Shown here one piece after another: positions 1,641 to 45,360 of a DNA stretch of 64,000 bases. Position 1 is the stretch's first letter. The number at the start of each line of letters is the position of its first letter. Both the position numbers and the translations under genes were made by a program. Origin of the DNA: Oculina patagonica (taxonomy: Eukaryota). The notes under the pieces are model-generated. The model worked only from the letters and a program-made list of their open reading frames with translations. It did no database searches and was not told the DNA's origin. The DNA lies in the NCBI RefSeq assembly GCF_052425735.1, contig NC_135760.1, forward strand, positions 28,947,074 through 29,011,073, written 5' to 3'.

Positions 1641-2110
1641 TAAACTAAATTAAAAGAAAACCCTAATTCTTAGATAGAGCAGTTTTCACTTGAGTGACAT
1701 TATAAGACAGTAATTTACATTTGCTTTGTTTTTGCATTATTATACTTAGTGATTGGTTTCTCAGCCAATCAGAAGCAAAAGCATAAGCAAGCATGACTCA
1801 CTCGTGCATGTTATCCTGCTGTTTATGCCAACTACATGTGTTTTCCCTCATGTTTTGATTGTATCACTGATTCAGAATTGTTTGCGCTGTATGAGACTTG
1901 AGGAAAAAGACAAACCTGTATAACTGATTTGCTTTTCCGGGCACTTCTTCGGACTGCAAAATACTCAGACACCTCAGTCTGACGTGTCTGCTTTTCTTCC
2001 TTCTTTTTCCTATATTATCACATGAAGAAAAATAGCCATATAACAAAATTCTCGATTTTGATTGGTTCTGTGTGCGCTTATTTGTCACGTAATCGGCGCA
2101 AGATCACGTG

Positions 2111-2172
2111 GGTGTCCAATTACAGGTATCCAATTTGAGCAACTTCAAATTGGATACCTGTAATTGGACACC
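2111..2172. repeat. Perfect 27-bp-arm palindrome (hairpin) flanked by CACGTG on both sides
   Basis: ggtgtccaattacaggtatccaatttg / 8-nt spacer / exact reverse complement. CACGTG sits at about 2105 and about 2194. Confidence 0.7.
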
Positions 2173-2375
2173 TATGCCATTTGCGCGTCAATCACGTGCA
2201 TATAAATGGGTTCTTTCTTGCTGTTTTCCCACTGTTTGTACAACCAGTTGCATTTACCATTGACTTTTTCACACTAAAAAAGATTCTCAAAGACTATTAT
2301 TATAGATTATTATTATCATTATAAAGAAAAATAAGTACACCAACCGGAGGAATGGGAGAGGAACACTGACGGAGC

Positions 2376-2465
2376 GACACGAGATGATGTGACGAAAACG
2401 GCCGCAAAACAACAATTATTGTTGTTTTGCGGCACGTTTTTGTTTCGTGTCACATCATCTCGTGT
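2376..2465. repeat. Imperfect palindromic foldback element (MITE-like). A partial copy lies at about 2690-2760.
   Basis: Left arm gacacgagatgatgtgacgaaaacggccgcaaaacaacaat; the right arm is its near reverse complement. Confidence 0.5.
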
Positions 2466-5400
2466 CAAGTCATCCGTTTTCAGTGTTAAAAAAATCTCTC
2501 TGCGAAGCCTGAGAGCACAAACTATCAATGACCCATTCACTTAACTCCTGTGAAAGAAAAGAAAACATTCAAAAAGGGAAATAAAGTGAGATTGTGACTT
2601 TAACACTGATAGCAGGTACAAAATACATGCATTTTCGCTTGCCATGTGACATGATTTAATAAACGCTTCAGCTCACTGGAAAAACATGAGTTCCATAGCA
2701 CGTTTCTGTTTCGCGTATTGTCATCTCGTGTCATGTCATCCATTTTTCATCTTTTTGAGGCGAGCAGAAACACGACGTGCTCAGGTGCATCTTTCTCTCA
2801 AATTTCATCGGCTGCTCAAAAATAACATTTGTTGCTGCCAGGTACGTATACAATATATGTACTGACAGAAAAGTAATTGAAAAAATTCAGCGCATCCAAG
2901 ACAGTAAAAAACATATTCAAAGGTTACACTTTGTTTTGGTGGTGGTGAAAAAAATAGAATCTGCGCTACGAAGCCGGAGAGCACAAAGCATCAGTGACCC
3001 ATTGATGCAACTCACATGAAAGATAAGCATTTAAAGGCAAATAAAGTGAGACCGTTACATTATTAAACACTTATTTAAAAAAAATGAAAACGAAACCATA
3101 TTCCCTGTTTGAAATAGCTGCTTTTTTAATTACTTCCGTCTGCCACGACGGACTTGATTGCTATGTCAGTTATGTTTAATAAACCCATTTAGGGTCCTCC
3201 AAGGTGTCAACATTTTAGCTTCTTGATTCACGTTGCACTTTATAGAAGTTCCAAAATTGTGATTTGATGTTAATTTATTTATTACACCATGGATACAAGG
3301 GTTTCATTTCTTTTAACCTTTGTGTCTGAACTTCATGGAAGTTATGTTTGACGTTACTAAGGGGGGAGGGTAGCATGTACAATTACTACCGTTCTACAGC
3401 TTCTATCCACGTATTTTTTGTCCATGTGCAACTTCCGTCAACAGCTAATCCATTTTAATATCCTCATTCATTGCGTGCTTCGCAGCACGCCGCAGCACGC
3501 TGCATGAATGAGCATAAAAAGCGAAGGACGGCACTTCACCGAATTACCATGAGGTTGCTTGAAGAGCCTTTGATTTTCTTCTGGCCAATCTGGGCAAAAC
3601 AAGCGTTAGGGAAACTTCCTAAAATTCCACATAAGGCGGTTATGTTCCTACTCTACAATAAAGAAAGATTCGTCCAAAGAAAGTTTTAACTGGTCAAAAA
3701 AATTGCAAAATTAAATTGTAATAGAGCTTTTCAATAGTACAATACTGTAGTCATGCATTGTGAAAAGTTAACAGCAAAAATACATTGAAAGAAAGTATTT
3801 GAGACAACCATCCTTAAAACAAACAAATAAACAAACAAACAGCCCACCATAGGGATCCATTGACAGTTGCACAATGTTAAAATGTTGTTTGCTTTAAATG
3901 TTAAGGCATAAATATGATTTTTCTTCACCTAACGACTGCTTTAAAAAAGAGAACAAATTAAAACATTTACATGACCCTGAACAAACACAAAAAACAATAA
4001 CTTACAATGTCTAACAAAACAGTTACTGTGATCAGATTAGTGAAAAGGTACTTGTAAATAATATTACTCTGTACAATAGAACTTACACTTTTTTCTTTTT
4101 CCCTTTAGCTTGTGTTATTGGATTATTACTCCACTTTAATAACTGAGGACTGAATGGCTTTGAGATTGTGTCAACTTGTTTCTTATCTGATGTCTTGCTG
4201 TTTTCAGTTTCTGTGAGCTGTTTCTTTGTGTCTTTTGAACCATCAGACATGATTGCACCCTCAAGGTTGGTTGGTTGTTCCTCTGGTTTTATCAGGACCT
4301 GTTCTATATGTGTATTCTTGTTTAAAGTCTCTGTTGAACATGATTCCTTCTCCACACCATCAGAGCTTTGATCAGCATTAGGAGTAGAAGGTGGACCCTG
4401 TATCAGTTGCAGAGATACTGCCATTAAGTGTGTTTGTTATTCATTCAAAATATTTCTTCATTTCTAATTGGTTTACAATCCGCTGGCAAATTCCAGTTAA
4501 CCCGCTAGCTTCAACCAAAATTGGAAGACATCGCTATTATTGGAAGTTGATGAAATATTTTGAATGAATAATACTACACTTGGCCAGGGTCACTGTGTTG
4601 TGTTCTTGGGCAAGACACTTTACTCTCATCATGCCTCTCTCCACCCACGTGTATAAATGGGTACTGGCAACATAATATTGGGGGTGTACCCTGCGATGGA
4701 CTAGCATCCCATTCAGGGAAAACGAGAAATATTCCTAGCCGCTTAATGCTTCCATTGGTAACATATTGTGCTATTGACATTAGCAGACCCTTTTGCGTGA
4801 AAGTTGTATCACTGAAAAGTGCCACAGACTGCTGATGTCAATAGCATGAGGTGTTTCCAATGGAAACTGGCTCTGTCGCCCCTGACAACAGCAGAGTTTT
4901 AGGGGTAAAACTTGAGAGTGAAACTTCCCTCATTGCAGTTTGAGTTTAGCTGCTCAAGCAAAGTTTAAAAAAATCGTCTTAAGGAACTACTGATGAACAA
5001 TTTGGGTTTAGAACCTGAAGACTGAGGCATTAACGACTCCTTTAGGAGCCAGACCATTTACCAAAAACAATGATCGACAACAACAGGTTTCAATAATTGT
5101 TAAATGTTTATTTACTTAAGATTTTTAGTGCTTTTTCTGACCCAAAACTAGGCAATTTACATCCCCAAAAGCAATGATCTTGTAGATAAGCCACACCTAC
5201 GATTTTGAGTCCAAAATTTCAGTAAATAGGTGTGGCAATTAATTAAAAACAAATTCAATCATGAACATAACTGGACTGAAAAATGGGGATTTGGTTTGAG
5301 TGGCCTTACATTAACAGGATAAAATTATAAAGGATTATGCAGGTTGGGAATTCAGAATGTGGCCATTAGCCGTATTAACGGGGTGGCTGCATTAACAGGG

Positions 5401-9331: not shown

Positions 9332-11407
9332 ATGGAATCGAAAACCATAGACAGAGACGCCGTACTAAATTCACTCGCTTTAAACAACTCGACAACAGAT
9401 GGGCAACCCAGAAAAAGAAAAAGACTTGACAATTTATCTGCCGAAGAAAGAGCCCTTCGAAGGTAAGTTACAATATGGCCTTTTGACGATTCTCTCTCAG
9501 CATAGCTTATATGGCTTGTAACAACTGAATTTTTGGTATCGAATGTCTAACTTAAGTATTTCTCTGAATAATCTGCTTACTGAATGAATGATAAAGCGTT
9601 GTTTGTGATTTTGTTTTGTTCAGAAAACTAAAGAATCGTGTGGCTGCTCAAACTGCTCGCGACAGGAAGAAGGCACGAATGACGGAACTCGAGGAGATCG
9701 TCGCACAGTTAGAACAAGAGGTGACATTAATCATATTGTCCAGTGTCTTTCCTCAACCGCTCTTTAACAGTGATCGTGAACTTATACCAGTATTCTCTAA
9801 TAATTTTGAACGGACGTTTTTGTTCCGATATGTAGATGACGAAGGATCGAGAACAAAGAAAGCTTTATAGCTCAGGCTAATCTTAAATTTAAAAAAAAAA
9901 TACAGAGCAAAATGCTTAAATGTCTTTCGTTTTCTGTGATTACATTTCTTTCAAACCCTCTAATGGAGCAACTTTTTCCCTTCGACTGGAGCTGGAATAT
10001 TTAATGGAATATAAATGGAGGAACAGTTTGCCTGTACCCGATAGCCATGTCAAGTTTACCTAAGCGCAGATTTCACAACCAGTTTTTTTAAGGAAGCAAA
10101 TTTATTTAGGCCCTAATATTGCTAGGTATTAATCAAAGGTCTTCTCTTGTGTGTATGCCATTCAAGCCAAATGTCTTTATTTATTTCAGAATAAAGCTCT
10201 TCGCACAGACAATGAAAGTCTAAGAAAACATTCAGAGGCAATGACAATTGAAAATTCCGAGTTGAGAGTTCGTCTTGGCCTCACACCTCCAGTATCGCCA
10301 GAGCCAGTCACCAAGCACACATACCCACCAAGTCCAGAAACAAGTTCAGTTGTGATCAAGAAAGAAGCAGAATGTAACGAGTATGCATCACTCTTAGTTT
10401 CTCAGCAGCAGGAACGCCTGATTCTGTTTCTTTCTCTGATCACGACTTGGATGACGATCAACAGCAGGTAATAATGAATCATTTGTAATAGAATTTCTTA
10501 TTTGAAATTTTGTAGCAAAGCCAAACTCTCAAATTTAGACAAGGTGGCTTGATCATGCTTTGAAACAAGCTGGAACTTATTGCTACAAGGTGCACAAAGC
10601 AGCTGGTGAAAATTTTACTTCCCACTTGCTCTACTGTTTAAATTTATTGCGACCTGAAAGTGATCAACCAAGCTGGGATGTGTTTTGCACCTAATAAGTG
10701 GTTTCCAGGTTACACATGTCTTACAATGGAATTTAATCACTATTGCGACAACAAAAAAATGATAGTCCAGCTGATGTGATGCTTGTGGGAGGATAAATTT
10801 GCATGGTAGTGTGTCAGCTGTGTAAACTGCATTTCATTGTGCTTTCATTTAACTTTTGCAAGTGTTCTATACACTAGTTATGTATGTAAGGTTCTCCTTA
10901 TTTGAAATTCCATGAACTTTTTTTGGTTTAATTGTTGTATGAATGTTGTTAAGAGAATTCATTACAGAATATGATTAGGGTTTTTTACAGTTTTGAAGAA
11001 ACAAAGACACAGTAGTGACATTATGATGAAAGTGTTGTGTTTGTTTCACTTCCCAGCCTGACATGGATTTTGGCTTTCTTGAATTTGATGAAGAAAGAGA
11101 ACCACAAGCCCTTATTCAGCCCAAGCAGGAAGCCAAGTCAGGCTCAACCTGCTGTCAGCATAGCACCTTCTCAGCCACAAAGGATGAAGACGACAACACA
11201 GTCCCAGAATCGAGCAGCAGTGACATAACAGTAGCAGATTTGGTTGGAATGGACTGTGAGGCTTTTAATTCGTTGGATGATATCTTGAATCTCAAAGATT
11301 TCTCTGAGGAGTTCAAAGAACTTGATGTTGAACCTGGAATGTTAGGTTGTGAAATGTGGGAGGAAACCTTCACAGAAGTATTGTTCCCATCCCTTCTGGC
11401 CGTCTAA
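9332..11407 (+). CDS. XBP1: X-box binding protein 1 (XBP1) ortholog, bZIP UPR transcription factor. Spliced-form CDS is join(9332..9462,9624..9720,10190..10405,10465..10467,11057..11407). The unspliced XBP1u frame stops at 11228.
   Basis: Exons 1-3 encode ...[80 protein letters not shown]. Human XBP1 reads [42 protein letters not shown]...ENQELRQRLG. GT-AG introns lie at 9463-9623, 9721-10189 and 10468-11056. The exon 4 +1 frame ends ...WEETFTEVLFPSLLAV*, matching the human XBP1s C-terminus ...WEDTFANELFPQLISV. The exon 4 unspliced frame gives a hydrophobic SLTWILAFLNLM followed by a basic tail, which is XBP1u HR2-like. Confidence 0.9.
10406..10464 (+). other. XBP1: Predicted IRE1-dependent unconventional (non-spliceosomal) intron of XBP1 mRNA, 59 nt, between twin CAGCAGC loops
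   Basis: The 5' site is the hairpin uuuCU[CAG|CAGC]AGgaa at 10398-10414, a 7-nt loop with the conserved C(-3), G(-1) and G(+3). The 3' site is the CAG|CAG loop at 10462-10467, whose 7th nt and 3' stem come from exon 4 after conventional splicing. It is the only G|C junction that lands in the conserved XBP1s frame. Length is 2 mod 3, as required for the u-to-s frame switch. The exact 5' cut could be 3 nt further 3' because of the CAG triplet repeat. Confidence 0.4.
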
Positions 11408-12785: not shown

Positions 12786-13978
12786 TGGGGTAAACATGAA
12801 CTCGCTTGTACTTCCAAACTTACTCGTGTTATCATCAGGATCTGCAAACATACATTATCTTTGACTACTTTTAAAAACGTTGATAGTAAGCTACAGATCT
12901 TTGGCACACGAGTTAAAACACCACAGGAAAAGCATGCAGTCCTCAGAACATCAAAATTTTTTTTTGCAACTTGAGGAAATTATTGTGGGAATTGAAGAAA
13001 TCCTGAAAATATCTGGATCAGGCTTGAATGGGTTACAAACCCATGACCTCAGTGACACTGGTGTAGTGGATGTTTGCTCTACTGCTCTCAAGGGGGTTTT
13101 GGTGTGGAGAGAAATGTTCATTCTCTCACAGACAAGGATTAATTTTTGTCTGATTTCCCAGTTAACATTCGGGTCACATCATTTATGGTCTTTTAACGTC
13201 CCTTCAATCAATAAATAACTCAAGTGCAGATGATTGCAGAAACATTGACCCACATAAAAACAAAATGTCTATTATTTTTCACATGGCTCGTTTTTCTTTG
13301 TTCTTCCAGACTGAATATATTGAATAAACCCCGCTAATTAGTAACTCTGAGAAGATGGGGGGCGGCTTTGATTATAAACGGGAGAGCGGGGCTGATATTA
13401 TATCTCCCTTCGGAATATTAGAGCTGATAATCCCCTAGGGTAATATTACAGTAATATTCCCCTCTCGCAACATAATAATAATATAATAATTTAATACTTA
13501 TTCGGCGCAAATTAGCATGTGAATATGATCAAATGCGCAACACACCCATACGGATTGCATCTCACAAACAAAACCATACTTTGATAACGTTACATTTATT
13601 TTGCCTAGACTGGTGTTACATAAATACTACTGAGCAGTTGTTCCTTGCCTCGACGTTTGCTTTCTCAGAATATCCAATTCCCTCTATAATGCACGCCTGC
13701 AGGGAATCACGGTAGTTGTGTTCGTCGTTGCTAAGTCGCGCGTGCAACTACCGTGATTCCCTGTAGGCACGCGCTATGCAGTGTACCGTATTTACTCGAA
13801 TAAGCGCCGCCCCGAATAAGCGCGATGCGGCGCATATTTGAGGAATTCCGTTTGACTAAAAACAGCACTACAAAGCAACTCTAAAATAAACTTGGACATT
13901 TCTTTCCATCAAAAGCGATGTTTTGCAGCTCAAAGTGATTGTTTTACCGCTCGCCCATAGTTTTTCTAGACATTCTTA

Positions 13979-16871
13979 TGCATCAGTCAATTGAAACCCC
14001 GGCCCCCCAACCCCCGGGACTTAGCGGGGATTTAACGCGTCCAAAGCCGGGATTTAACGCACTTTTAACGGCGAGTTGGCCCCGGTGGGCGGTGGTTTTA
14101 ACAAAATGTCAGTAGACCGGGGCCGTGGAGCGGTAATTTAACAGCACGCAATCACCTGAAGCGGGGACGACAGCCGGGATTTAACATAAAGGACTAAATG
14201 CTTTCCTCAAAATGTTCGTTTTGAGGAATCCGTTCTAAAAAGTCTCCACTCTTCTTCCTTGATAAAGCTTTTCGCGATGCCTGGGTTTGTATTTCATGCG
14301 TTCGCATGATAAAAATAGACTCATTGTACTTGTAATCTACCACCTTAGTACATTATCGTCTCCAAGAAAGTAGTTTCTGTTTCTGAGATTTCAGCCGTGA
14401 ATTATATGAGGATCAGTTAGGGTAAATTCCGACAAGCGACACGGCGTTTAAACAGCGACATGGAAGAAATAAAATGGCGAGGAACGACGAGACTTTTATT
14501 AAAATAGCGACAACGAAGGAAAGAATTAAATAAGAGTACTACGGCGAATCTGTCAGTTTCTTGCCATCCTCGGAGACCCAGGGGCAGTTAGTGGGGCGAG
14601 GGAAACGCGAAAATGCAAGACAGCTATGGCGAGCGAACTGGCTTTGTGTACATATTTCGTATGAGAACGCACCAAAAGGACTGTAGTCAGGCTGGTCGCC
14701 GATTGGGCAGAATAATACAAAGATAATACAAAAGATTTTTCTGCCCAATCAGGAGGCAGTATTCAGAGAGCTTTTTGAACTGGCCTGGTAAGACTCTTTC
14801 CCTAGGGGCACTTTCAGTCAATACAACTTTTATATGCCGATTTTTTCCCTCGCAGTTTCGCGCTATTTTCTACCCGCATTTTCGCGTTTCCCTCGCCCTA
14901 CTAACTGCCCCTGGGTCTCCGAGGATGGTTTCTTACATGTTCGACGGCGAATCTGATGTAGTCACAAGTCCCCTACGTCATCAGCATGTTGGAATGCTTT
15001 TAAATATATATTTAGGTCCCACAGATTTAACAAAAAAAGCTATCAAGTCGAAAAGTGGATAAGTACAAACATTCAAAAACTTGCTTTGCTTGACCTACTC
15101 ACTAGTGAGTATTTCGCTATAAATGATACAAGGTGACAGATCCTTACTTCTTATGGATGTGGCTGATCAAGACGTTATATATTCAATAAACAAAAGTTAA
15201 AAAGAAACAAACTAAACTAATAAGGGTTTGCATTAGAGCGGGAGAGCGGGGATGTTGCTGTTATGATTAGCTAGCAACCAGCCAAAGTACTACATCCTGA
15301 TAGAGCATAGCAAAGTACAAGGAATTACGACAAATAAGCACAGATGTCTTTCAGCCTAGCGAGATCAACCCACCTTTGAAAAGTTGACAGTGAACGCTTG
15401 AAACAGCGGACAGCAGCAGTGCAAAAATAATAATCGCCCGTCGAGGTCGAGAAATCGGTAAAGTAATTTTTAGCGGCATTTTTGATCAGTTGAGAACATG
15501 CCATTTTTTTATTAATCTGTCAAAGAATTAAATTAGATTAATTTTAACGGATCCCTAAAAATGCACGAAAAACTTCTGCTCTGTGTACTTTTTAATAGTT
15601 CAGAGTGACGTCGTATTTTTTTATTTGGTCAAAAAATTTAGAACACCGTTTGTTACTGCGATATTAAAGTGCCCGAAAAACTTTGCTCGTTTTTTAATTG
15701 ATCGAAAAATTTTACACACTGTGTTTAATGCGAAATTAAAGTTCTCGAGAAACTCCTGCTCTGTGCACGTACTGAGCAGTTCAGAGTCATCACGTCGTTT
15801 TTTAATTGGTCGAAAACTATAAAATACCGTTTTGCTGCGAAATTTAAGGTTCCCGAGAAACTTCTGCTTTGTGAACCTAATTTAGTCACGTCGTTTTTAA
15901 TTGGTCGGGACATTAAAAACGTTAACTTCCTTTTTAAAATACCGGAGAAAGTTCTGCTCCGTGTAGCTAGGTTACTCACGTCTATTGTGTTCTAAAGGTA
16001 GACACGTCGTGTTTTTATCTGTCAAATAATTAAATTAATCTTAACATGCCGAGAAACTCCTGCTTCGTTTACTAAGTTCAGAGTCACGTCATTTTTTAAT
16101 TGGTCGAAATATTCAAAACACCGATTTGAAAGAAACTCCCGCTCGTTTTTAATTGGTCGAGACATTAATAAAATAACTGCTTTTTTAAAATACCAGCGAA
16201 ACTCCTGCTCTGTGTACCTAAGTTACTCAAGTCTTATTGAATTGGTCAAAATATGTGAGAAACTTCTGCTCTGTTACTCGCGTCAGTTTTTAGACAAAAT
16301 GACGAAATTCCGATAGCGACATTCGGACCATTTTTAGTTGCGACATGACGAGCTTTGAAATTGAGACGGGAGACTAGTATACCTACCCTAACAGGGCCTC
16401 TTATATCGTAGGGTGAAAGATGTTTACCTATAGAAGAAATTCTTCTATTTTGTCTCTTCTTGTGTCCCACATCAGTTTAAAAGACGTCAATAAATCGTTT
16501 CCAAAGGATAGGCTTATTGTATTTTGTTTTCTATTTTGGCCGTGAAGATGACAGCAGAAACTGCGGCGATTGTCATGCCCATGGCTGTTTGATGTGCTTA
16601 TTAAAAGATAGTCATTGAATTGGAACAAGCTTTCTTGAAAGATCACACTGAGCATCTCTCTTAAAAACCTGTTAGGCACTGCAACGAAATCAAGATTTTT
16701 GTCCGTTTTTTATCCTGAAAGTCGATTCGGATGCCCCCGCTATGCGGGGCTTTTAACAGACGTCTAGGCCCCTAGGGCGGGGAAATAAGCCGGGTTTTAA
16801 CACTTGGTAAATGTTAAATTCCCCGGTAAGTCCCGGGGGTCGGGGGGCCGGGGTTTCAATTGACTGATGCA
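13979..16871. mobile_element. Non-autonomous PIF/Harbinger-like TIR DNA transposon (about 2.9 kb) with 3-bp TTA target-site duplication, subterminal GGGATTTAAC repeats and an internal tandem array
   Basis: The TIR is tgcatcagtcaattgaaaccccggcccccc.acccccgggactta, seen at 13979-14025 and reverse-complemented at 16825-16871. TTA flanks both ends (13976-78 and 16872-74). Internal inverted segments lie at 14560-14940. A tandem array of about 60-130-bp units (...gagaaacttctgctctgtg...cacgtcgtttttaattggtcgaaaa) lies at about 15560-16300. Confidence 0.6.
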
Positions 16872-18881
16872 TTACGATATGTAGTATTGTCAATGTTGTC
16901 AAGGCCGAGGAATTTGCCAAGACAGCTAGCGCCACTTATTTCTTCAGCAAGAGACAATCTTTGTGGAGCGCCGCCCTCAAATAATTATTCGAGTAAATAC
17001 GGTATTCCGTTCGGTTACCTACTCATTCCAAACATTCAAACACCAAAAGGTTACCTTTTCAGTGTTCAGTTTGATCCTTTTAATACTATTCCTGGCCAGG
17101 GGCTCTTTGTCATCTACGACGATAATGTCGTTTGGTATCAGGTTGTTTCGCCCGTTCGCCGGCTGAGACGTTTCGCCCGATCCCCGATCTCAGAGTCGAT
17201 TCCACCGAAGAAAAAGTCGATTCGCCCGGATCAACATCTTGGTTAAACAAAATGTTTTGGTGGCTTAGCTTCAACAAACATACAGCAATAATGCCAGTTG
17301 ATCGTTGAGTTTCTTGTAAACAAACGCTGCTCATTTTGTCAATGTTTGCGGTTTTATATTCTTGTTTCAATCCCTTTTCCGGGTTGAGTGGCTCATAGCA
17401 GCTTTGTTGGGGATTTTGCAAGCCAGTGCGTTTTACATAAATTTTATGAGCAAACTGTCGCAGAATTTTCAATATATACATAATTTGTCTGGATTTATTA
17501 AAACCAGGTCAAAGAAAAGTGACCGAAATCTTCTTGCTCATGTGCGTTAGAGTGCGCCAAGAAAAAAGGAAAAACAACGCTGAAAGAGACACGAGAGAGA
17601 ACTGAGGAGAGAAAGACCGACATTCCCTTTAGTTTTCATATCGCGTTTACACGTTTACAGCGCTTTGCGCTTAAAACGGTGAAATTTTCATTAACCTGGT
17701 TTTGATAAATCCAGAAATTTACATACTTATATTAAAATCAAGTCAGACAGAAGTACAGTTGAATAACGATAACTCAAACCTTCAAGGGAAATCGAAAAGG
17801 GTTCGAATTATCGGGGGTTCGAGTTAGCGAGTATAAAATTTATTAGAAGGAAGGGGAATCGAAAAAGGTTCGAGTTAGCGGGAGGTTCGAGTTATTGAGG
17901 GTTCTAGTTATCGGAATTCAACTGTACAATGTCTGCAGAGTTCAAGGCAAGCTAAACCCTATTTGGCAGTTTATATGTCTTCGGCTGCAAAAAGTCTGAC
18001 TCTGTCAATTTTGAATGATCCTCGCAGTGTATAAGCAAACTACAACGGCTACAACTCCCAATTTTTTTTTGCCAATTTCAAGACTACAACTACCAATTTT
18101 GTTGAAAAAATAGCTAGTCTTGCTATATTAACAAGTCGAAATACGAATGGCGCGTGAAAAGATACAGCAACAAAATATTTAATGAGAGCTTTATTATTCC
18201 AAGGTTCACCTTTACTGTATAATGCCAAGGTTTTCTTACCTAAAATCTAAACTATGCACTGTGTTATCTGTGTTGCACACAGTTGAGAGAATTAAGCAGG
18301 GACTACAACTTATAAGTATTTTAAGTGTACTACTGGCTCCAGCAGATGTAATAAGCAATAGTCTATCAAAGTGTTGGTTTATCTGTTTCAGTTGGTTTGC
18401 AACTGTTGTTTGTGTCAAAAGGGTTAGATAAAACATGCAGCTACAATCAGTGCGAGAACTCGATGCCACAATGTCCAAATTTCCTGTTTTGAATAGCACT
18501 GATTGCTTCATTATTCATTAAACCGCACAACACTACATGTATAACCAGGTACGGTGATTGTGACGTCTTAATTTCTGCTATATGCATAATAATGTTGCAA
18601 CTAAGAATTCTCAGACACATTACCTTTGCTTTTGTTGGTGATATGAAACGTTTTCAACAAAAATGTATTCATACTGAACAGTAAGAACAATTAATTTAGT
18701 GTGCGTTGAAAGCACAGGTGTCACTCAAATGAGCTTATTAACATGGCTTACAATACTTGCGATCTTGCCGTCTTTGGCTTTCTATCAAAGTTACAATAGC
18801 CTTGACAGTGAATGAATACAAAAAACCTGCAAAGCATTAGCCTGTTCCAGGCTTTCAGTTAGTGAGGGACGGTGCTTAAAG

Positions 18882-18975
18882 AAAAACGGCGAGCGAAAAA
18901 ATAGGAAGGGGGCTGGGGTGTGGAGAGGGAAATTTCCTCTCTCCTCCCCTCCTTATTTTTTCGCGCGCCGTTTTC
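18882..18975. mobile_element. Palindromic MITE whose termini (aaaacggcgagcgaaaaaatagg.agggg) match the TIRs of the 29101-30640 element
   Basis: aaaaacggcgagcgaaaaaataggaaggggg...cccctccttattttttcgcgcgccgtttt. Confidence 0.5.
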
Positions 18976-18996
18976 CTCTTTCACCGCTGTTCTTTT

Positions 18997-19104
18997 AGCC
19001 TGCGAGAGCAGACGCATTTCCGGCCGTCGCTTCTCTCCGCCGAAAAATAGCTATTTTTCGGCGGAGAGAAGCGACGGCCGGAAATGCGTCTGCTCTCGCA
19101 GGCT
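18997..19104. repeat. Near-perfect 53-bp-arm palindrome downstream of the MVP 3' end
   Basis: agcctgcgagagcagacgcatttccggccgtcgcttctctccgccgaaaaatagc|tatttttcggcggagagaagcgacggccggaaatgcgtctgctctcgcaggct. Confidence 0.7.
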
Positions 19105-19570
19105 ACTGTTCTTTGGGCCGTATGACATCAGAATACTGTCAGAGGTGGTCAAACCCTATTATTGACCTTCACAGAGATGTTATTTTGTTTGTTTGTAAAA
19201 TCTCTATAGCCTGCGTTGCAGCCGGACGTGTCACAGAATCCTCGAGATAGTCCGGCGGTTTAGACAGTCTGCGACGCTGGCTAAATCAGTACAGCCATAA
19301 CTGAAAAGTTATTTGTCAACATAACTGCAGTAGCTGTGATAAAATTACAAAGACAGGAAACCCTGATAAGTATTCTAAGTTGCAACCTAAGAAGTATTCA
19401 TTTCTGCTACTGGTGACTGCAGATTGAAGACAATTCTTATACAAAGTCCCCTAAATAATAAAAGTCCATACTGGCCTAATTCTAATATTAATTTAATATT
19501 TGCTAAACGTTAAACGTAACAAGGATAATTGACTTGACCTAACCATACAATTTAGGTGTTACTGTATTAT

Positions 19571-19576
19571 TTTATT
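19571..19576 (-). promoter_or_regulatory. MVP: AATAAA polyadenylation signal of MVP, 13 nt after the stop codon
   Basis: The minus strand reads ...gactactgaacatgtctggctAATAAAataatac. Confidence 0.5.
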
Positions 19577-19588
19577 AGCCAGACATGT

Positions 19589-19720
19589 TCAGTAGTCTGC
19601 GGAGGAGCCTGGTTGTTGAAGAGCACCAATCAGACCTTGAGCTGTGCTAAACAAGTTGATAGGAGAGCTCCCATCTGTTATCAGGGTAGACTTTAGACCC
19701 AAAGACTGCAGCAGCTTCAC
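19589..19720 (-). CDS. MVP: MVP exon 16 (last; stop TGA at 19589-19591)
   Basis: [43 protein letters not shown]; acceptor cgtgttgcag. Confidence 0.8.
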
Positions 19721-22700
19721 CTGCAACACGATCAACAGTTCATCTTATCAACTGGAGATGGAGCGGTTTTTCAATTGAGTGTAAAAAAGGAAAGAAACTT
19801 AGGTGATCATTCTGGCCAATCACAATGGGCACAAACAATCCATTGATCCAGTCAAAATGTTAGACTGCAAAACAGTCGTTTTTTTCCTCTAACTTCGTTA
19901 ACAATCGCTTAACAAGGGCACGATCGTCTCGTGGACTCACACGTGCAGTCCGTTTTGAAATTGCATTCAGACCTCTTGTTCAAAGACCGAGCGTGTTTGC
20001 ACAAATTGACTGTTTCATAGTCCAGTCAAAATTAAAAGCAAATACATGCAGCCTGTGCGAAGTGTGGGAATCCGTGCGAGCAAGTCACGATTGGTTTTGG
20101 TTTTTTTTTTTTGGATTAAAAAGTGGCGAAAGACTTTTCAAACCAATCACTAAGCGAAGCAGTGCAAAACCAAAGCAAATGCGAGTTAATTCCGATACTC
20201 AGGTGAAAAACCGCTAACATGCTTGTAAAGCAGTGAGATCACAAACAAAAGTCAGTGTGTCTCGGGAAAAAAAAACAAGACAAAAAACAAGACAATGTTT
20301 GTAGATTATCAGTAGTAAGGTACAAACCTGCATCTCTGGTCCAGCGGTGGCTATTGCCTGAATAGTATCAGAACCAATAGATGACACCATGTTCTTAAAT
20401 TTCTCTGTCTCAATGCCTGCCATCTCTTTGGCCTTGGTTACATCCAAGGTGTTCTGTTCATGCTGGTACTTCAACTCCGCCTCCCTTGTTTTACTGAGAC
20501 GCTGCAGTTCAGATTCCTTTTAAAAAGAAATAGAACAACTCAAAAAATTAAGTTTGTTCACACTGAACTCTCATGTTGCAGTTCATAAAAAAATCACAGA
20601 GCAGGAACGATCCAACGAAACAAATCATCTCCACCTCCCACCTTCTTGGAATTAATGATCGAATTTGATCTGTTCGCTGTTTATAGAACATATCAAGAAC
20701 AAGAAATTATTGTGCCATGTGTCCATTTTTTCATAAATTAGACAGTTCTAAGAATCAAACTTCAATTGTGATCTACGTTGAGCAAATTAGGGTGCAAAGT
20801 TGCATCCAAAAGAACATCCATTGATAAGCCAAGAGCTTATTTTTGTGTTAAACGGCTTTTCAAATGGGAATTTGCGTTTCAAAAAACTTTGGGTTTTTTA
20901 TTTGGATGGAAGACCCTCTAAACATAACGAAACAAATATAACAACTGACTGAGCGTTCTCTTACTGAATGTAAAATACAAAAATAGCCCTGATGGGAGAG
21001 AAATGTATTAGTTCAACAATCATTGATTATCATGTGCCGTTTGACCTGAGTTTATCTTTGTACACCATTGTACACCCATTGTGTTATTTATATCAACAGA
21101 ATATGACTCTTTATATCGAAACAAAAACTCTAATGCATAAAGTGTACATTTCGATTTCGTTTGTAATGAGGTTTCTACTTTTTCCGTTTGACAAGAATGT
21201 TGCCTGATAAACTGGCAGAGCAAAATGATCATTTGTTTATCATATAGTTTAACTGCATCTAAAAAACAAACCAGACATTAGTAATAACAGTTCCTTGACA
21301 AGATTCAGCACATAACCATGTTATTCACTTTTTCCTGTATATGAATTAATATTCTGCATTTATTAATATGAATGTGAACATGTTTTGTCCAAGTTATAAC
21401 ACAAATAACAAGTTATCATAGTAAACTCAGAGACTCAAAGGACAGTGCAGAATGCAATATGGCCAACAATTGACAGCATGATAATAATTTTCCAGGGTAA
21501 TTTCGCTTGAGAATAAGTCAAATGAGATCACCTTTCAGTCTGAAACGCTGTTTCATCTGTACTTGTAAGATGTGGAAAGACCAAACGTGACAACTAAATC
21601 ACGCGACACCTTCATCCAGGAAAAGATTTCCCTTTTTGAAAAGTCACACACGCGGCCGACCAGTTGACACAATTAAGAGTCGATTTTTTAGTAAAGGAAG
21701 TTTTCAATCATTTGAACCGTTGTGTTTTACGTAAACTTTCGTTGATTTGAGAGTTTTTAAGCAGCAAACGCGATACTTTTACTTTTCGTGCAAACTTTTG
21801 TAACATGAGTCTAATTTAAGTCTAATTTAATTAACGCCACGGATTCTACAAGAATCATACCGCATTGAAAAGCACACCACGTTGGACTTTGATACAAACT
21901 TTCTAAACACGTCTCTGTTATTTTAATTTTCGTTAGTTTGAATTCAGTTTGATATTGAAACAGCAAACGTGATATTTGTGCTTTGCGTGCAAAGTTTTGT
22001 AACATGATACCTTTGTTTTTCTCTTAGACTGCTATGATGCCTTAAAGTCTAATTAAATTAACGCCACGGATTCTACAAGAATTCTACCGCATTGAAAAGC
22101 ACATCACGTTAGACTTTGATACAAAATTTCTAAACGCGTCTCTGTTATTTTAATTTTCGTTAGTTTTTATTCAGTTTGACATTGAAACAGCAAACGTGAT
22201 ATTTGTGCTTTTCGTGCAAAGGTTTGTAACATGATACAAGTCTAATTAAATTAACTCTACGGATTCTACAAGAATCCTACCGCATTGAAAAGCACACCAC
22301 GTTAGGCTTTGATACAAAATTTCTAAACACGTCCCTGCTGTTTTAATTTTTGTTAGTTTGAATTTCAGTTTGAAATTGAAACAGCAAACGAGATAATTTC
22401 CTTTTCCTTGAAAACGAATGTAACATGATACCGTTGTTTTTGTCGAAAACGGATGTAACGTGATGACATGGTAACGTGATTTATTTTCTGCAAAGAGGGC
22501 GACATCGATTATAACACAGATATTATCGATTAATTTAAGAATTTGGTTTTTCTGAATTATGAGATGCTACAACAGAGCATCTACATGTATTCAAAGAAAA
22601 CAGCATTGCCATAACAAGAATTATTTCACATGAACTGCTATGACGCCTTAATGTCTAATTCAATTAATTTGCAGTTTTAACTTGGCGCCACGTAGTCTAC

Positions 22701-25700
22701 ATGTACAGGAATCCTTCCGCAGGAAGAATTACGCGATGTTCATGACGTCTATTAATCTGCGCATGCGTTTAGCACAAAGTAGTTTCTTCCAGAAAGAGTA
22801 GTACCACAAGGAGAGGATAGTACTTTCTGAAACAAATATATACCTTTCTTCAATTGTATCGTAAATATACTTCCCATTCTACCAAGGGCACACGGTCTGT
22901 TGCTCCCTTCCCCCTAACAGAAATAATTAATTAATTGATATTAATTAATTAATTGGTGATTAAAAGTTTACACCGCGTTAGCGGTTTAGTGGGTTAGTGG
23001 TTTAGGGGTTTAGCAGACGACAACCCACCAAACCATCACAATAGTGCATTCTGCACTAAAAAGGATGAAGACTTACAGCCTCAATCTTAGCTGCTTCTGC
23101 CTTTAACTTTGCCTGCTGTACTGCTGCCTCCCCCTCAATTCGAGCTGCCTCAGCTTGGGACTGTGCCTCAGCCTTAGCTTGCCCTGTCGACTCCACTGCA
23201 GCACTCTGAGCCTGCAGTTCTAACAACTCCTTTCTAGCACGTTCTGCCTCAGCCTCGTCTGATATCTTCTGCCTTTCCAGTCGACCCTTGGCTTCTTGCT
23301 CAAGCCGCTCTGCTTCATGTCTAAAATGTACACACCATAAAGTAAGTGCAATCTATGTTTTATTGTTTTCATAAGGAAACTCTCAAAATATTGACCATAT
23401 CAATCATTAGTCTTTGTAATGTAGACGTTAGGATATCTAGAAATTAAAGAAAATCGTAAATATGTTTTACCTGATGGTCGAAACATACATATAAAAGGAA
23501 ATTATAATAATGGTTGCCAGTAGCTCATCATTTAATGATCTACGTAGCATATTTACCGTGAGCCAATTTACCTTGCTGTAGCTTCCTGAGAATTAGTTGT
23601 AATCTCAATGGCTAACTGGACTGACTTTTGTAGTGCATCTCTGGTACGCTGATCCACTGGCTCCACAGATTGGATATCAATGCTTGTTATGTTAAGGCTG
23701 TTTGCTGGGAAAGTAAACTTGTTTCGAATCTTGTGATTGTCATCAATGCCAAACACTGAAGTACGGATGATCTTTGCTGAATTCTGCAAAATGGAGACTG
23801 TTTTTAGTCAGTGATTACTCTTTGGAAGTTAAAGATGTTAAATGGCATCTATAGCACTACTATAACACCTAAAAACTTAACATAACTGTGATTGCGGACA
23901 ATCACAGAAATACAGGTCATAAAATCCACGAATCACACGGCAATGATTCATTCAGATAATAGAATCATGTTTAATTTTCTGTGTTTATTTAATTGCATAG
24001 TTTGTAATTGTCGTGATCAGGTGGGAAAATGGGTATCTTATGGGAATGTTTGACTAAATAACTAAGCTAGGAATGGAACAGTTTTAAAAAGAAGTGGCGA
24101 CACCAGGCCCAGACGGTTTCACCAGCAGGGCATTTTATAAGAATCTTCTTAGAAACAAAACATCACTTGCGAAAACATTTTAAAGAATGTTCAAGGATTT
24201 TCAAAGATCTGGAGGTTCCTTTAAAACTGCAAAGAACTATGTTTTCTAAGATCTTTTATCATTTTATTTTATGATCTTTCTACCCTTAAGCGATCCTTTA
24301 TGTGTACAGTCATTTCATTTTGGCTGCTGTCATACTGATGGCAAAGCCCAGCACAAATTTAGTAAAATATAATTTCACCTTATGAAAGTCGTCAAACTGG
24401 ACCCCAGCTACTGCACCGCGTATCCTTGAAGCAATTGCTTTACACGCATCTCCTACAAAGTCTGGAACAGAAAACAATTTGGCAGCATCCTTTGCACTCT
24501 TGTCACCAACTTCAAAGTGCCTGTTAACAAAAAACAAACAGGTTGCACTAAGTAAACAGACTGAAAAATACTGATCAAAAATTGTTTGTCAGATGTCCAA
24601 GGTAAAAAAGCATTGCCAATTCAGCAAAAATAATCTCATATCAACTAGCGCAAGTGAAAATATTATTATATAAGTGCTTTATTTCAAATGAAATATTTAG
24701 ATTATTACTTCGGACTACATGTTATATACTTGAACTGAATGATTATAATTGGGATTATTCCAATCTTTAGTAAAATTACCAGAAAAAATACCCAAAAACA
24801 TTTTACTTTTATGCAGGCATTTAAGCTTGGAATTTAGTGTCCTGCAATGCCTGATCAGGATGACTGGTAATGCCATATACATGCATACTGAGAACTTCAC
24901 TGAAAACTAGTAAAAGACTGCTAACAAAGCTCTAGCCATGTGCAAACAGCCTGTGTATTTCTGCTTCATAAACATGCATTTATTTATTTATTTATTTAGA
25001 AACAAACATTTATTTTACATCACATTTCACATAAAATAATAATAAATAAATACCTTATTGTTATTTATTTTCACGGGTACTTTTGCGAAAATGGAACAGG
25101 AATATTTCGCGAGACTTAATTTTCGCGATTTGGCCAAAAATACGTAATTGGCATAAAAAATTATAATAGAAATCGTTTAAAATTAATTTTTGCGGGTCTT
25201 AAATTTCGCAATTTTCAAAAAATCGCGAAAATAAAGTCCCGCGAAAATAAGTAACAATAAGGTAGTAATAATTAATACCAGTTGTAAGATAGCTGAAGCT
25301 GCAGTCTAGCATGGTCAGACGTCTCTACAGTGACAATGTCAGTACAGAAGTCTGGGCCAAGAAGCAGACACAGTGCTTTGATTACGTTGGGTTTCTTTGG
25401 CTTTCCTCCTGACAGACTGAGCTGTGTAAACTGTTCATCAGGACACAACATGACCAGCTCAGGTCCAAAAACAACTCTGTAAAGGAACAAAATAAAAAAT
25501 GTATACAGTCAACTCTCTCTAAGACGGACACCGTCGGGACCGGCCCCAACTGTCCGCCTTATAGAGAGTCGAGGTAACGTGACACCAGAAATTTTGAGAC
25601 GATAAAGCTAAACGGCTATGCACAACGAATACACGTCTGTTTTAGTCGCTTACGTTAGCAAAACCTATAAAGTGGAACAAAAATAATATCAGAGATTCGA

Positions 25701-28700
25701 CTTGTTTGTTAATAACAAACTGTGATACTGTAAGTAGAAAACTAAATCTACAAGTTTAAGCAGAGAAGTAATGTGTTTTAGCGGATTGTTTTTGGTAAAT
25801 TTGGTATTCTAAAGGCGCTGACCTGCTTTGCTATATGTCGATAACAAGTTTTGATGTATTATTCACGAAAAAATAACTTTTAGTGCCTGTCCGTTGGCGG
25901 TTTCAAAGTGTCCGTTGTCCATCTTAGAGAGGTGTCCGTCTTACAGAGAGTTTTCTTACAGTAAAATGACTGAAAAACGGCAGGGACCATACCCAGGTGT
26001 CCGTCTTATGGAGGTGTCCGTCTTATAGAGGTGTCCGTTAAGAGAGAGTTGACTGTAAACTTATTCAGATTTGTTAGTCTTCCTTTTTGGGTATCCGTAA
26101 CACAAATTGATTGGAAGGGTGGTTGAACACAATTTACAGACAAAAGGAAAAGACTGAACTTGATGTACACCAAATTGTGGCTTGTTTCTATACAGCATGT
26201 TTGTCCCGAAAGGATCTTGAGGTAATGCAAGGGCAGGACAGGGACAGCTTAATCTCTTATTTAATGCACTGTAGATGCTACCCTAAACTTCCAATCACCC
26301 TTTGTTTTGCATTTCATCATAGTTAGCCCAGTGCTTTTGACAAAGATTGTAGAAACATCTATCATTGAACAAGATGTTTGTCACGAGACAAACTAAAGTG
26401 TCAGTCGTTAAAGCACACTACTGGACGGGCGCAACTGAAATTAAGGAAAATATGAAAAAAAACATCTAAAAAAGTGGATGGACTAAACATAACACAGCAA
26501 ATACAAAAGAAGGTGTGGGTGCACAAAATCAGAAGATTAAAATGGAATGTGATGTGGGTTTTTAAAAAACTGTAAGTCTGAACAGTTTTCAAAGTTAATG
26601 TTTGATTGTTAATTTGTTACCTTTTGTCACAACATTTCTAATGAAGCTATGGTTTTGTCATTTGGATCTTTAGAAGACATTTCTCTGCTGCGACATTAAG
26701 TTTCACAATTGGCTAATATTTGGCAAACAGCCGTGCTTCATTGACGCTACCAAAGACAGTATTTTATAACATCCAAGCACACACCATGAATTGGGTAAAA
26801 AAAAAGCACTGTAAAAAATCTGATGCTGATAATGCCTTTTGTCAGTTTAATTTTTAAATATGTACCTGGCAGTCTTCTCTTTGTAGTCATATATCTGCAC
26901 TGCTGCATTATGAGGCACTCTGAACGTAACAACTCTGGTTTTGTTCCTCCCAAATTCACTTCTGGGTTCTCTTTGTACTGCAAAGTATTAATACATCAGT
27001 GTACCCCAAATAAAACTTGCATCGTGATGAAAATTGTTTTCATCCAATGCAAATGATAAAAGCAAGAAAAAAAAAAGCATTTTAAATTTTCAGGGACTTA
27101 AAAACTGGAGAGCTAGGCTGGCATGCCTTCATGAAAACAAAACAAAACAATCAAATCAATCTACTTATGATTAATATATATATATATATGCACACAAGGC
27201 AAAAAATATGATAAAAATTAACCTACGCTTTGTAATCAGCAACAGCAGTGTTGATCGAGTTACTTAATAGTTCTTAATTATGCCTAATAAAAAGTAATAA
27301 TATATCGAACTCAATACAATATTTGGAAAATGTTGATTAACAAGTTAGCAATACAAAGTTAGATAATAATAATTAGTGATTAACTTCTTGTTCTGCAATC
27401 TTTCACTTGAAGTACTAAGTGTCTTTATATATAATTATTCAAAGGCTCAATTAAACCTGCAATTACTCTGCCTTGGGTATCATTGAAAATAACTATTCTT
27501 CCTGCAGAACTTTATAAGTGACATCTTTTTGTTTAAGGAAAATAATGTCCTCAGAAATAAAACAAAGGCCCACACTAGCCACAAGTGTTAGTTTTTTAGT
27601 GTTAGGTTGTTTCAGGTATAAGGGGGTAAAAACAATGTGCATTATAAGGGGTGGTGAATGGTCCTTCAAAAATGGCGTGTCTCGCAAAATTTTAGCTAAA
27701 TTTCAAGGGTCTCGTCGTCTCGAATTTTTCTTTGATGCCTTCTCGGAGTCTTGATTTCTTTTGCAGGGCTAAAAAGCTCTCAAAGGATCTCGGGCTCGCA
27801 GAAAAGATATCAGTCTCGCCGTCTCGCAAAGTCTCGCATTTACCATTCGACACCCCTATTATAGAAAGTAATGGGAGAAAGAGTAGGGATAATGTGCACT
27901 GAATCTTTTTTGCCTATCCAATATCTTTTTGTGGTTGGGCCGATCTTTCAACGATGTGCAATTTTCCCCCCAAAATCAACAAATATATCTAAAATTAATC
28001 ATTCACCTTTTAAAGGGCCTTTCATACGTCTCGGTGAACTAGACTGCTGTGTATTGGAAAATTCATCCCATTGGTTGGACATTGCCTGCATGGCTGGGAA
28101 ACCTTGAAAAAATTTAAAGATATAATTCACCTTGAAAAACATTGATGTAAGCTGGCCAGAGATATGAGAGAGAGGTAAGTAAGTCAGTGACCCAAGCTAC
28201 TTGGAATTTCTTTATCCAAATTCACCTAAACATAAAATTCAAACGTACAACCTTCCATGCACTGGTTTGATGCTCTACCACTGAATTACAGGCAAATGCT
28301 GGGAGAGGGGCATTCTACCTACAATAGAGGACACACTTGTTGGGATAGATAACGTCCCCAGTATCCTCCCGACATTGGTGTGCTAGTTATCATTAACATA
28401 ATTAAATGCAATAAACAAAAGAAGAAACGGAAAGGAGGGTGTATGGAGTGTCAACAACAATAATTGTGGCAGGTGCATTGTATGTTTATAATAAATGTGA
28501 CAAACTCCGTCTAACATGGCCTAATTAATGCACACGGGACTCCTAGGCCTGTTGCTTGGTTTCTATTTATTGCCTTAGGTTACATGAGATACACTGACGA
28601 AGGACCAACTTTAACCAAGGAAGTGATAGCATTTCCAGAAATTGGAGTGACCTTGTAAGTATCTCCTGTTTTTCTCCTGGACACTGCCAATTATTTTGCT

Positions 28701-45244: not shown

Positions 45245-45360
45245 GTTCAATTTTATCCTTGGTTCAAATTTTTTATTTTCCTTTGTTTTTGGGTAACAAT
45301 GGTAATGTAATGTATGATAATGAGTAAGAAAAATACAATTTGAACCAAGGGTAAAATTGA
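45245..45360. mobile_element. Foldback MITE in the EEFSEC intron (same family as 40316-40497)
   Basis: ggttcaattttatccttggttcaaatttttt...gaaaaatacaatttgaaccaagggtaaaattgaac. Confidence 0.55.

Follow-up and report, generated by a model that had tools for sequence, protein, structure and literature searches.

A non-coding copy of a multi-copy transposon family with TTA/TAA target-site duplications, enlarged by nested insertions, in the stony coral Oculina patagonica

Introduction

Transposons of the PIF/Harbinger superfamily generate 3-bp TWA duplications and need two proteins for their movement, and the Myb-like protein of Harbinger3_DR binds to a subterminal motif 9 bp in length (PMC9710019, PMC2836001, bioRxiv 10.64898/2026.05.26.728016). 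Characterised members have an extended target preference, of 9 bp in plants and 15 bp in vertebrates (PMC2836001), which is typical of the members that have been studied but not strictly defining. Their terminal inverted repeats (TIRs) are called typically about 15 bp long (PMC9710019), with TIR length elsewhere described as highly variable. The Zator superfamily includes amphioxus Zator-1, which has 33-bp TIRs and 3-bp duplications of TAA and TTA (PMC12905397). Zator transposases are without a Pfam model (PMC5751038), so that Pfam scans are blind to them. Repbase admits an element to a family on its first 11 terminal nucleotides, with at most one mismatch (PMC4455052).

The locus described here lies in a 64-kb stretch of DNA, termed the window. 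It is an unremarkable, non-coding member of a cut-and-paste DNA transposon family that occurs in many copies in stony-coral DNA, and represents routine repeat biology.

Termini, flanks and extent of the element

The outer element occupies positions 13979-16871 (2,893 bp), with TTA on either side and no transposase within. Its termini are TGCATCAG...CTGATGCA, and the two TIR arms match at 44 of 45 positions from the tip and at 94.9% over 59 nt, which gives a TIR length of 45-59 nt. The 26-mer TGCATCAGTCAATTGAAACCCCGGCC has two exact occurrences in the 64-kb window, at 13979 (+) and 16871 (-), where none is expected. The local flanks read TTTCTAGACATTC-TTA on the left and TTA-CGATATGTAGT on the right, and the TTA on both sides of the TIRs, as originally predicted, is thereby confirmed. 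The host element has the following parts:

13976-13978, unstranded: left TTA flank, read directly and from the family flank statistics
13979-14037, plus strand: left TIR (TGCATCAGTCAATTGAAACCCCGGCCCCCC...), which takes in the first GGGGATTTAAC motif; from comparison of the arms, the first 19 nt being invariant across family copies
13979-14407, plus strand: left 429 bp of the host family copy, aligning with 788-1215 of the related copy L002
16407-16871, plus strand: right 465 bp of the host family copy, from alignments to L002 and L001
16813-16871, minus strand: right TIR, an inverted-repeat match to the left arm
16872-16874, unstranded: right TTA flank, read directly

On the right-hand side, window positions 16401-16675 align with L002 1210-1488 and positions 16726-16871 with L001 1408-1553. 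Judged from these alignments, the host element proper is about 0.9 kb in length (894 bp: 13979-14407 joined to 16407-16871).

A 20-nt perfect inverted repeat (13784-13803/16985-17004) is also found around the insertion. An outer element of about 325 bp, bounded by this repeat, was considered; a duplication was looked for and none was visible.

Nested insertions within the host copy

The interior of the locus is made up of the following features:

14408-16400, unstranded: foreign nested non-autonomous TIR element of 1,993 bp with its own termini, GAGGATCAGTTAGGGTA / TACCCTAACAGGGCCTC; from an inverted-repeat search and comparison with L002
14402-14407, unstranded: left TTATAT, the 6-bp duplication of the nested element, from comparison with L002
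16401-16406, unstranded: right TTATAT, the 6-bp duplication of the nested element, read directly and compared with L002
14564-14928, unstranded: second-order nested inverted-repeat element of 365 bp, with 53-nt arms and flanks TTTCTTG / TTTCTTA
15545-16300, unstranded: irregular degenerate repeat array with a core AGAAACTCCTGCTC and a TTTTTAATTGGTCGAAA-type unit, part of the nested 1,993-bp element

The original prediction described one 2.9-kb element, with a tandem core and inverted segments of its own. All 2,893 bp do indeed lie within the outer TIRs and the TTA duplication, but L002 represents the uninterrupted site, as it follows window positions 13979-14407 and then goes straight to 16401 onward. 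The junction in L002 consists of one TTTTAT; its counterpart in the window is TTATAT, 1,993 bp and a second TTATAT. The block is considered to be nested because L002 runs uninterrupted over the junction and because the block has its own inverted termini; furthermore, the interior (14408-16400) is present in no other family copy. The single-element anatomy is contradicted by these observations and very improbable, and the locus is better described as a family copy of about 0.9 kb plus a 1,993-bp nested insertion.

The inverted segments that had been placed at 14560-14940 are real, with arms at 14564-14616 and 14876-14928 that are 98% complementary over 53 nt, but they belong to the foreign 1,993-bp element. 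These arms also match L001 6147-6222. Similarly, the tandem core assigned to 15560-16300 exists, albeit in a degenerate and irregular form, and sits in the nested element rather than being the host's own. The units of the array at 15545-16300 are 14-61 nt long, 60-93% alike and spaced 53-294 bp apart; within the array, Tandem Repeats Finder reports just 15617-15754 (period 73, 1.9 copies). Two unrelated small transposons, inserted later, account for the large and complex look of the locus.

A multi-copy family with a 3-bp target-site duplication

The peptide encoded by the TIR (MHQSIETPAP...) was used as a query and led, by way of four related ORFs, to loci L001-L005, whilst the terminal 19-mer was matched by 73 metagenome contigs, about 15 of whose loci are chance matches that have the 19-mer alone in common. 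The 19-mer has no match in viral contigs and five in bacterial and archaeal genomes, all of the 19-mer only and with the family features absent. No match to the TIR sequence was found in the literature searched. Family copies are typically 0.5-0.9 kb long and have only their termini in common, which amount to about 220 bp on the left and about 146 bp on the right. The first 19 nt do not vary in any family copy, and over the extended TIR conservation is about 90%.

Non-recurring TIRs and flanks other than TTA or of variable length had been named as the observations that would count against the original prediction, which withstood this check. The same termini were recovered at 48 different sites in contigs of coral-type assemblies and metagenomes, and the flanking trinucleotide at these 48 distinct-flank ends is TTA in 24, TAA in 19 and another sequence in 5 (TTA/TAA in 43/48). 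By position, T is found at -3 in 47/48 ends, A or T at -2 in 45/48 and A at -1 in 46/48. Positions -4 to -10 are near-random on single-base frequencies in this small sample (C15, A14, G10 and T9 at position -4), and no extended target preference around the TWA is visible on that measure at the 48 flanks. Complete copies, with an end of the left type and an end of the right type, number ten including that in the window. The trinucleotide on the two sides is the same in 8/10 of them and its middle base in 9/10 (binomial P about 0.01), as a direct duplication would predict and an extended inverted repeat would not. Together these copies form a genuine non-autonomous TIR family, present in many copies and duplicating a 3-bp TWA target site on insertion.

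The subterminal motif array

Two groups of short motifs lie next to the termini:

14023-14187, plus strand: left array of GGGATTTAAC-type motifs in a single orientation, exact at 14027, 14049 and 14176 and degenerate near 14066, 14094 and 14127
16745-16824, unstranded: right subterminal motifs, with GGGGCTTTTAAC and CCGGGTTTTAAC on the plus strand and GGGGAATTTAAC on the minus strand beside the TIR

With at most one mismatch, GGGATTTAAC has 8 matches in the window against 4.6 expected across the whole 64 kb, and five of the eight fall within the element's ends (14027, 14049, 14176, 16792 and 16813). When degenerate TTTTAAC/AATTTAAC copies are counted the motif total is about six on the left and about three on the right; about six repeats had been proposed. 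The left ends of family copies contain on average 4.4 TTTAAC compared to 0.03 in shuffles, always in the same orientation, and column conservation in the subterminal region is 0.875-0.93 for the motif against 0.77 for other columns. The array is thus kept across family copies. The GGGATTTAAC/TTTAAC sites are putative binding sites of a DNA-binding partner protein.

Coding capacity and the search for an autonomous partner

The element had been predicted to be without a transposase ORF, and this is the case: its longest ORF is of 95 aa and the ten longest have no Pfam family, with zero Rfam family matches within the element. No DDE_Tnp_4 or Myb/MADF ORF was found between or beside the family termini in about 66 family loci (about 50 distinct sites), on contigs mostly of 1-8 kb, a length that makes the negative a weak one.

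One locus, L032, in which a 1,176-codon ORF adjoins a right-type TIR, was considered as an autonomous copy and rejected as an independent nested element. Its family homology ends 183 bp in, whilst the family sequence goes on in the sister locus L059. The ORF has no Pfam family, and it is homologous to DUF6589 or 'CXC domain' proteins found in corals, molluscs and other animals. Relatives of the ORF without family TIRs are found in L084 (95% identical) and in L085 from Porites lobata (77% identical). The 1.8-kb copy at L052/L074 gave no Pfam match in one translated frame, the other five frames being judged by eye. ORFs of 134-168 aa that are conserved among the approximately 0.9-kb copies L011, L061 and L064 appear to be non-coding.

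Which transposase moves the family?

PIF/Harbinger is the most likely mobiliser superfamily, with a probability that we place at roughly 0.7; it is only the most likely because an autonomous partner was not found in the loci examined. The original description of a Harbinger/PIF-like non-autonomous element therefore holds as regards a TIR transposon with 3-bp TTA/TAA duplications, with PIF/Harbinger itself a best guess and not demonstrated. To call TTA the hallmark of PIF/Harbinger was an overstatement, as Zator-1 too makes TAA/TTA duplications (PMC12905397), and the duplication is not decisive because Zator elements share it. The TIRs of the coral family, at 45-59 nt, also exceed the figure of about 15 bp given for PIF/Harbinger (PMC9710019).

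The same anatomy could be the work of a Zator-superfamily transposase, whose target signature in amphioxus is that of the coral family and which would escape a Pfam scan. No Zator-like ORF linked to the family termini was found, however, and subterminal binding-motif repeats are documented for a Harbinger element, whereas none that we are aware of has been described for Zator. As general background, PIF/Harbinger families probably outnumber those of Zator by far in the genomes of cnidarians. A Zator mobiliser is possible but unlikely.

Other superfamilies with roughly 3-bp duplications, such as CACTA/EnSpm and Academ, or an undescribed one, come into question since the superfamily of a non-autonomous element is not fixable without its autonomous partner, and to our knowledge no consensus terminus matches TGCATCAG. 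Against this, the family termini are not CACTA/CACTG, a difference that counts against CACTA/EnSpm, strict TWA specificity is not a feature known to us of either CACTA or Academ, and the only large ORF adjoining a family end (L032) is the independent nested element. This explanation appears improbable. Tc1/mariner (Stowaway-like MITEs) was rejected as it duplicates TA, whereas TTA or TAA is repeated directly at the flanks here, and piggyBac/Kolobok as they duplicate TTAA, whereas position -4 is random. Taken together, a transposase of Zator type, or one not yet described, in place of PIF/Harbinger is a tentative possibility, a little stronger than Zator alone.

The history of the locus is best explained as follows. 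A non-autonomous transposon of about 0.9 kb inserted at a TTA site with duplication of 3 bp. Having no coding capacity, the element must be moved in trans, presumably by a transposase for which the 45-59-nt TIRs are the recognition sites and a DNA-binding partner directed to the GGGATTTAAC/TTTAAC repeats of the subterminal regions, the likeliest pair being a PIF/Harbinger DDE transposase and its Myb/SANT/MADF-like protein. Afterwards, the unrelated 1,993-bp non-autonomous TIR element, with its 6-bp duplication, its own degenerate array and the 365-bp inverted-repeat element, hit the window copy, which thereby grew to 2,893 bp. The data establish the family with its termini and TWA duplication, the conservation of the motifs, the nesting and the absence of coding capacity; the superfamily and the protein-binding role of the motifs are inferences.

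Significance

The practical worth of the locus is in annotation, as it defines a repeat family with clean boundaries, the terminus TGCATCAGTCAATTGAAAC, a TWA duplication and common ends of about 220 and 146 bp. These boundaries can be used for masking and for tracing insertions in Oculina and other stony-coral genomes. Two cautions follow, namely that a large "composite" non-autonomous element may in fact be several insertions nested in one another, and that a TTA/TAA duplication by itself is no proof of PIF/Harbinger. If an autonomous partner is found, the motif array provides a ready binding-site hypothesis for its DNA-binding protein. Were the mobiliser Zator-type or undescribed, the strict TWA duplications and GGGATTTAAC-like arrays would be the signature of a second transposition system, active in stony corals and as yet poorly characterised.

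Comparison with known systems

Non-autonomous CACTA/EnSpm elements combine a 3-bp duplication with subterminal repeats, as does the coral family. They differ in that the coral termini are not CACTA/CACTG and the coral target is sequence-specific (TWA). Zator-1 of amphioxus (Branchiostoma), by its published description, resembles the coral family in having TIRs a few tens of bp long and in duplicating 3 bp, TAA or TTA (PMC12905397), although subterminal motif arrays are unreported for Zator-1 and a Zator transposase was not found at the coral family loci.

Relative to PIF/Harbinger elements, the coral family has no linked autonomous partner in the loci examined, no preference beyond TWA in 48 flanks, a relatively long TIR (45-59 nt) starting TGCATCAG and a scleractinian coral as its host. 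The closest resemblance is to the non-autonomous members of this superfamily, such as Tourist-like MITEs (for example rice mPing), zebrafish Harbinger3N_DR and Harbinger-1M_cIno of Caenorhabditis inopinata, which share the TIRs, the 3-bp TTA/TAA and the lack of coding capacity. Non-autonomous PIF/Harbinger elements likewise give rise to many short derivatives with termini alone in common, and the 9-bp Myb-like binding motif of Harbinger3_DR is comparable to the short subterminal repeats of the coral family.

The window copy and its surroundings

Within the 64 kb, the sequence TGCATCAGTCAATTGAAACCCCGGCC is present exactly twice, at 13979 and, inverted, at 16871, whereas no occurrence would be expected by chance. 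These sites mark terminal inverted repeats (TIRs) whose arms are identical over the first 30 nt, agree at 44 of their first 45 bases and are 94.9% identical over 59 nt. Both arms are directly bordered on the outside by TTA, as the original prediction had stated for an element at 13976-16874. The predicted subterminal motif repeats and the lack of a transposase ORF were also confirmed: five of the window's eight matches to GGGATTTAAC (up to one mismatch; 4.6 expected by chance over the whole window) lie within approximately 370 bp of the two element ends, the longest ORF in the element is 95 aa, and none of the ten longest belongs to a Pfam family. An Rfam search of the element likewise matched no family.

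The window is eukaryotic, repeat-rich and approximately 38% GC, and the element has a bZIP exon on one side and the shoulder-domain exon of the major vault protein on the other. The genes are:

9595-11404, + strand: bZIP exon, at 9.6 kb; it looks XBP1-like by eye
20217-24588, - strand: major vault protein exons, with the shoulder-domain exon at 24.3-24.6 kb
44606-47169: selenocysteine elongation factor gene; its 444-codon exon (45835-47169) matches an Oculina patagonica protein at 99% identity, followed among named matches by other stony corals at 75-77%

At 13784-13803 and 16985-17004, some 175 bp and 110 bp outside the element, TACCGTATTTACTCGAATAA forms a perfect inverted repeat of 20 nt. 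It has no visible duplication around it, and could represent the ends of an older element of about 325 bp that received the family copy. Elsewhere, a 20-bp minisatellite forms two large arrays (28677-29236 and 30553-31700) that yield long artificial ORFs, and the GC skew falls to -0.23 at 30-32 kb. A large foldback is formed by an 878-nt inverted repeat (54551-55428 and 55531-56408; 93% complementary, 102 nt between the arms). The region 18879-19105 contains a perfect 110-nt palindrome (18996-19105) beside a hairpin (18879-18978) whose miRNA-precursor matches, on both strands, all fall below threshold; the two are probably small foldback repeats. An exact 170-bp tandem duplication occupies 33864-34203, in a region that has several repeats in common, inverted, with 2.7-3.6 kb.

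Nested insertions

The proposal of a single 2.9-kb element did not survive alignment with L002, a related family copy that spans the uninterrupted site. L002 aligns to window 13979-14407 and then passes straight to 16401 onward, with the junction GAATTTTAT|CGTAAGG. At the same junction the window reads GAATTATAT, a 1,993-bp block that starts GAGGATCAGTTAGGGTA and ends TACCCTAACAGGGCCTC, TTATAT and then CGTAGGG. Because L002 runs across the junction and the window holds the block between copies of TTATAT, 14408-16400 can be recognised from the alignment as a TIR element in its own right, which made a 6-bp duplication (TTATAT) on entering an 894-bp family copy. The predicted tandem core and nested inverted segments do exist, but as parts of this foreign block rather than of the element itself:

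15545-16300: irregular repeat array
14564-14928: 365-bp inverted-repeat element lying between TTTCTTG and TTTCTTA; its 53-nt arms are 98% complementary and are found again in L001, another family contig

The interior 14408-16400 is absent from all other family copies compared. The window copy has intact termini and a size tripled by secondary insertions.

A multi-copy family

The family was sought by two indirect routes, a protein search with a TIR-encoded peptide and a scan of a metagenome collection with the terminal 19-mer. Read inward, one frame of the TIR encodes MHQSIETPAP..., its ATG being formed by the TTA flank and TG. This peptide retrieved four spurious ORFs, whose contigs (L001-L005) all contain the TIR. 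The 19-mer scan gave 73 contigs, of which approximately 58 have extended TIR and subterminal sequence, the remainder matching the 19-mer only. Since the family contigs encode a GPCR, a chondroitin GalNAc-transferase, a sulfotransferase and LINE reverse transcriptase and hold, in one contig, a nested transposon with its closest proteins in Porites lobata and Oculina patagonica, they resemble host DNA and a coral origin is inferred.

Copies have approximately 220 bp at the left and 146 bp at the right in common, with left and right ends distinguishable beyond about 58 nt, and differ in their interiors. Typical complete copies are 0.5-0.9 kb, with L001 at 1.26 kb and L052 and L074 at 1.8 kb. L014 has a ~210-bp insertion (409-618) that interrupts the TIR some 30 nt from its tip, and internal deletions in L053 and L065 fuse TIR position ~39 to position ~102. 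In a right-type-end subfamily (L026, L021, L029, L030, L034, L044, L045, L047, L054, L063, L066 and L067), the ends lie ~292 bp within a longer repeat, 3 kb or more in size, with copies 82-93% identical; nine of these loci have the identical 10-nt flank TGCTCAATTA. A family fragment was apparently carried and amplified within another repeat. The interior shared by L002 (1027-1290, - strand) and the window (14194-14343 and 16407-16470) contains an ORF remnant (…FDVRTHYQPTETFQYTNFYSCHPPG…) that has no Pfam match and by eye looks similar to what follows the reverse-transcriptase domains of Penelope-like or other retroelements.

The left consensus has six TTTAAC-centred motifs in a single orientation, the fullest form being (C/G)GGGATTTAAC, and the right end has one motif adjoining the TIR and two further in, in the opposite orientation. 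TTTAAC is present at 4.4 copies per left end versus 0.03 in shuffled sequence. Column conservation is 0.875 (left) and 0.93 (right) for the motifs, 0.77 for other subterminal positions and 0.90-0.93 for the TIR, a pattern that fits putative protein-binding sites.

Target-site duplication

Among 48 family ends with distinct 10-nt flanks, the preceding trinucleotide is TTA in 24, TAA in 19 and another in 5. T stands at position -3 in 47 of the 48 ends, A or T at -2 in 45 and A at -1 in 46, and from -4 to -10 no base is preferred. The original prediction, which depended on recurring TIRs and constant TTA flanks, withstood this comparison, as the TIRs recur with TTA or TAA (TWA) before 43 of the 48 ends. 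Ten complete copies, the window's included, have one left- and one right-type end; in eight the two flanking trinucleotides are identical, one has TTA/TTG (a third-base substitution) and one TTA/TAA. The flanks fit a direct duplication rather than an extension of the inverted repeat, because the middle base agrees in nine of the ten (binomial P ~0.01, by our own arithmetic).

Mobilisation and superfamily

The family is a stretch of DNA that has no coding capacity, keeps conserved termini and recurs at many sites, each bracketed by duplicated TWA. This suggests that a transposase supplied in trans would excise the element at its TIRs and integrate it at TWA by a cut with a 3-nt stagger. A DNA-binding protein specific for the repeated subterminal motifs may mediate recruitment.

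Cnidarians generally contain far more PIF/Harbinger than Zator families. PIF/Harbinger elements duplicate a 3-bp TWA target and require a DDE transposase together with a Myb/MADF-like protein, which in Harbinger3_DR binds a 9-bp subterminal motif (PMC9710019, PMC2836001, bioRxiv 10.64898/2026.05.26.728016). The family fits this picture, but TTA cannot serve as the hallmark that the prediction took it to be: amphioxus Zator-1, with 33-bp TIRs, is also reported to make 3-bp TAA and TTA duplications (2026 paper; PMC12905397), so that a TWA duplication alone is not diagnostic. Pfam scans, which cannot show Zator, found no transposase between or beside the termini at any of the family loci, mostly on contigs of 1-8 kb; Zator transposases have no Pfam model (PMC5751038) and would therefore be invisible here. 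Mobilisation by Zator is unlikely given its relative rarity in cnidarians and the subterminal motifs, which weigh towards PIF/Harbinger, and affiliation with anything else is less likely still. On cnidarian abundance and the motif parallel, PIF/Harbinger is favoured with a probability of about 0.7.

A 1,176-codon ORF beside a right-type TIR in the family contig L032 was rejected as an autonomous partner and belongs to an independent nested transposon. Family homology is lost after 183 bp, a point beyond which the sister locus L059 still has family sequence; the homologues are DUF6589 or CXC-domain proteins; and copies in L084 (95% identical) and in Porites lobata (L085) sit without family TIRs. 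This DUF6589/CXC transposon-like element, ~4.7 kb or longer, is found at:

L032, about 505-5206, starting with CACTGTACACTGGG at the breakpoint
L084, 10450-15184
L085, 9121-14232

It encodes a ~1,200-aa protein whose C-terminal half by eye looks like a PIN/FEN-type nuclease; the L032 copy has no Pfam match. Homologues annotated as DUF6589 or 'Tesmin/TSO1-like CXC domain' occur widely among corals, molluscs, sea spiders, echinoderms and fish. L084 also holds a 4.2-kb segment (16352-20564) between 26-nt inverted repeats (CCTTTGCATAAATGGCGCCTAAATTT, 96%), without clear duplication at its ends, within which a Harbinger-type (DDE_Tnp_4) ORF fragment lies at 17224-17664; the termini of the segment are unrelated to those of the window family.

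The TIR sequence was not found in the literature searched, and the family can best be regarded as a new, or at any rate unplaced, representative of a recognised element type, and as ordinary repeat biology. The extended target preference of studied PIF/Harbinger members is not visible in the single-base frequencies of the 48 flanks, and the 3-bp TAA/TTA duplication is shared with Zator-1. With PIF/Harbinger the family has the TWA duplication in common, and its subterminal motif array parallels the 9-bp motif of Harbinger3_DR.
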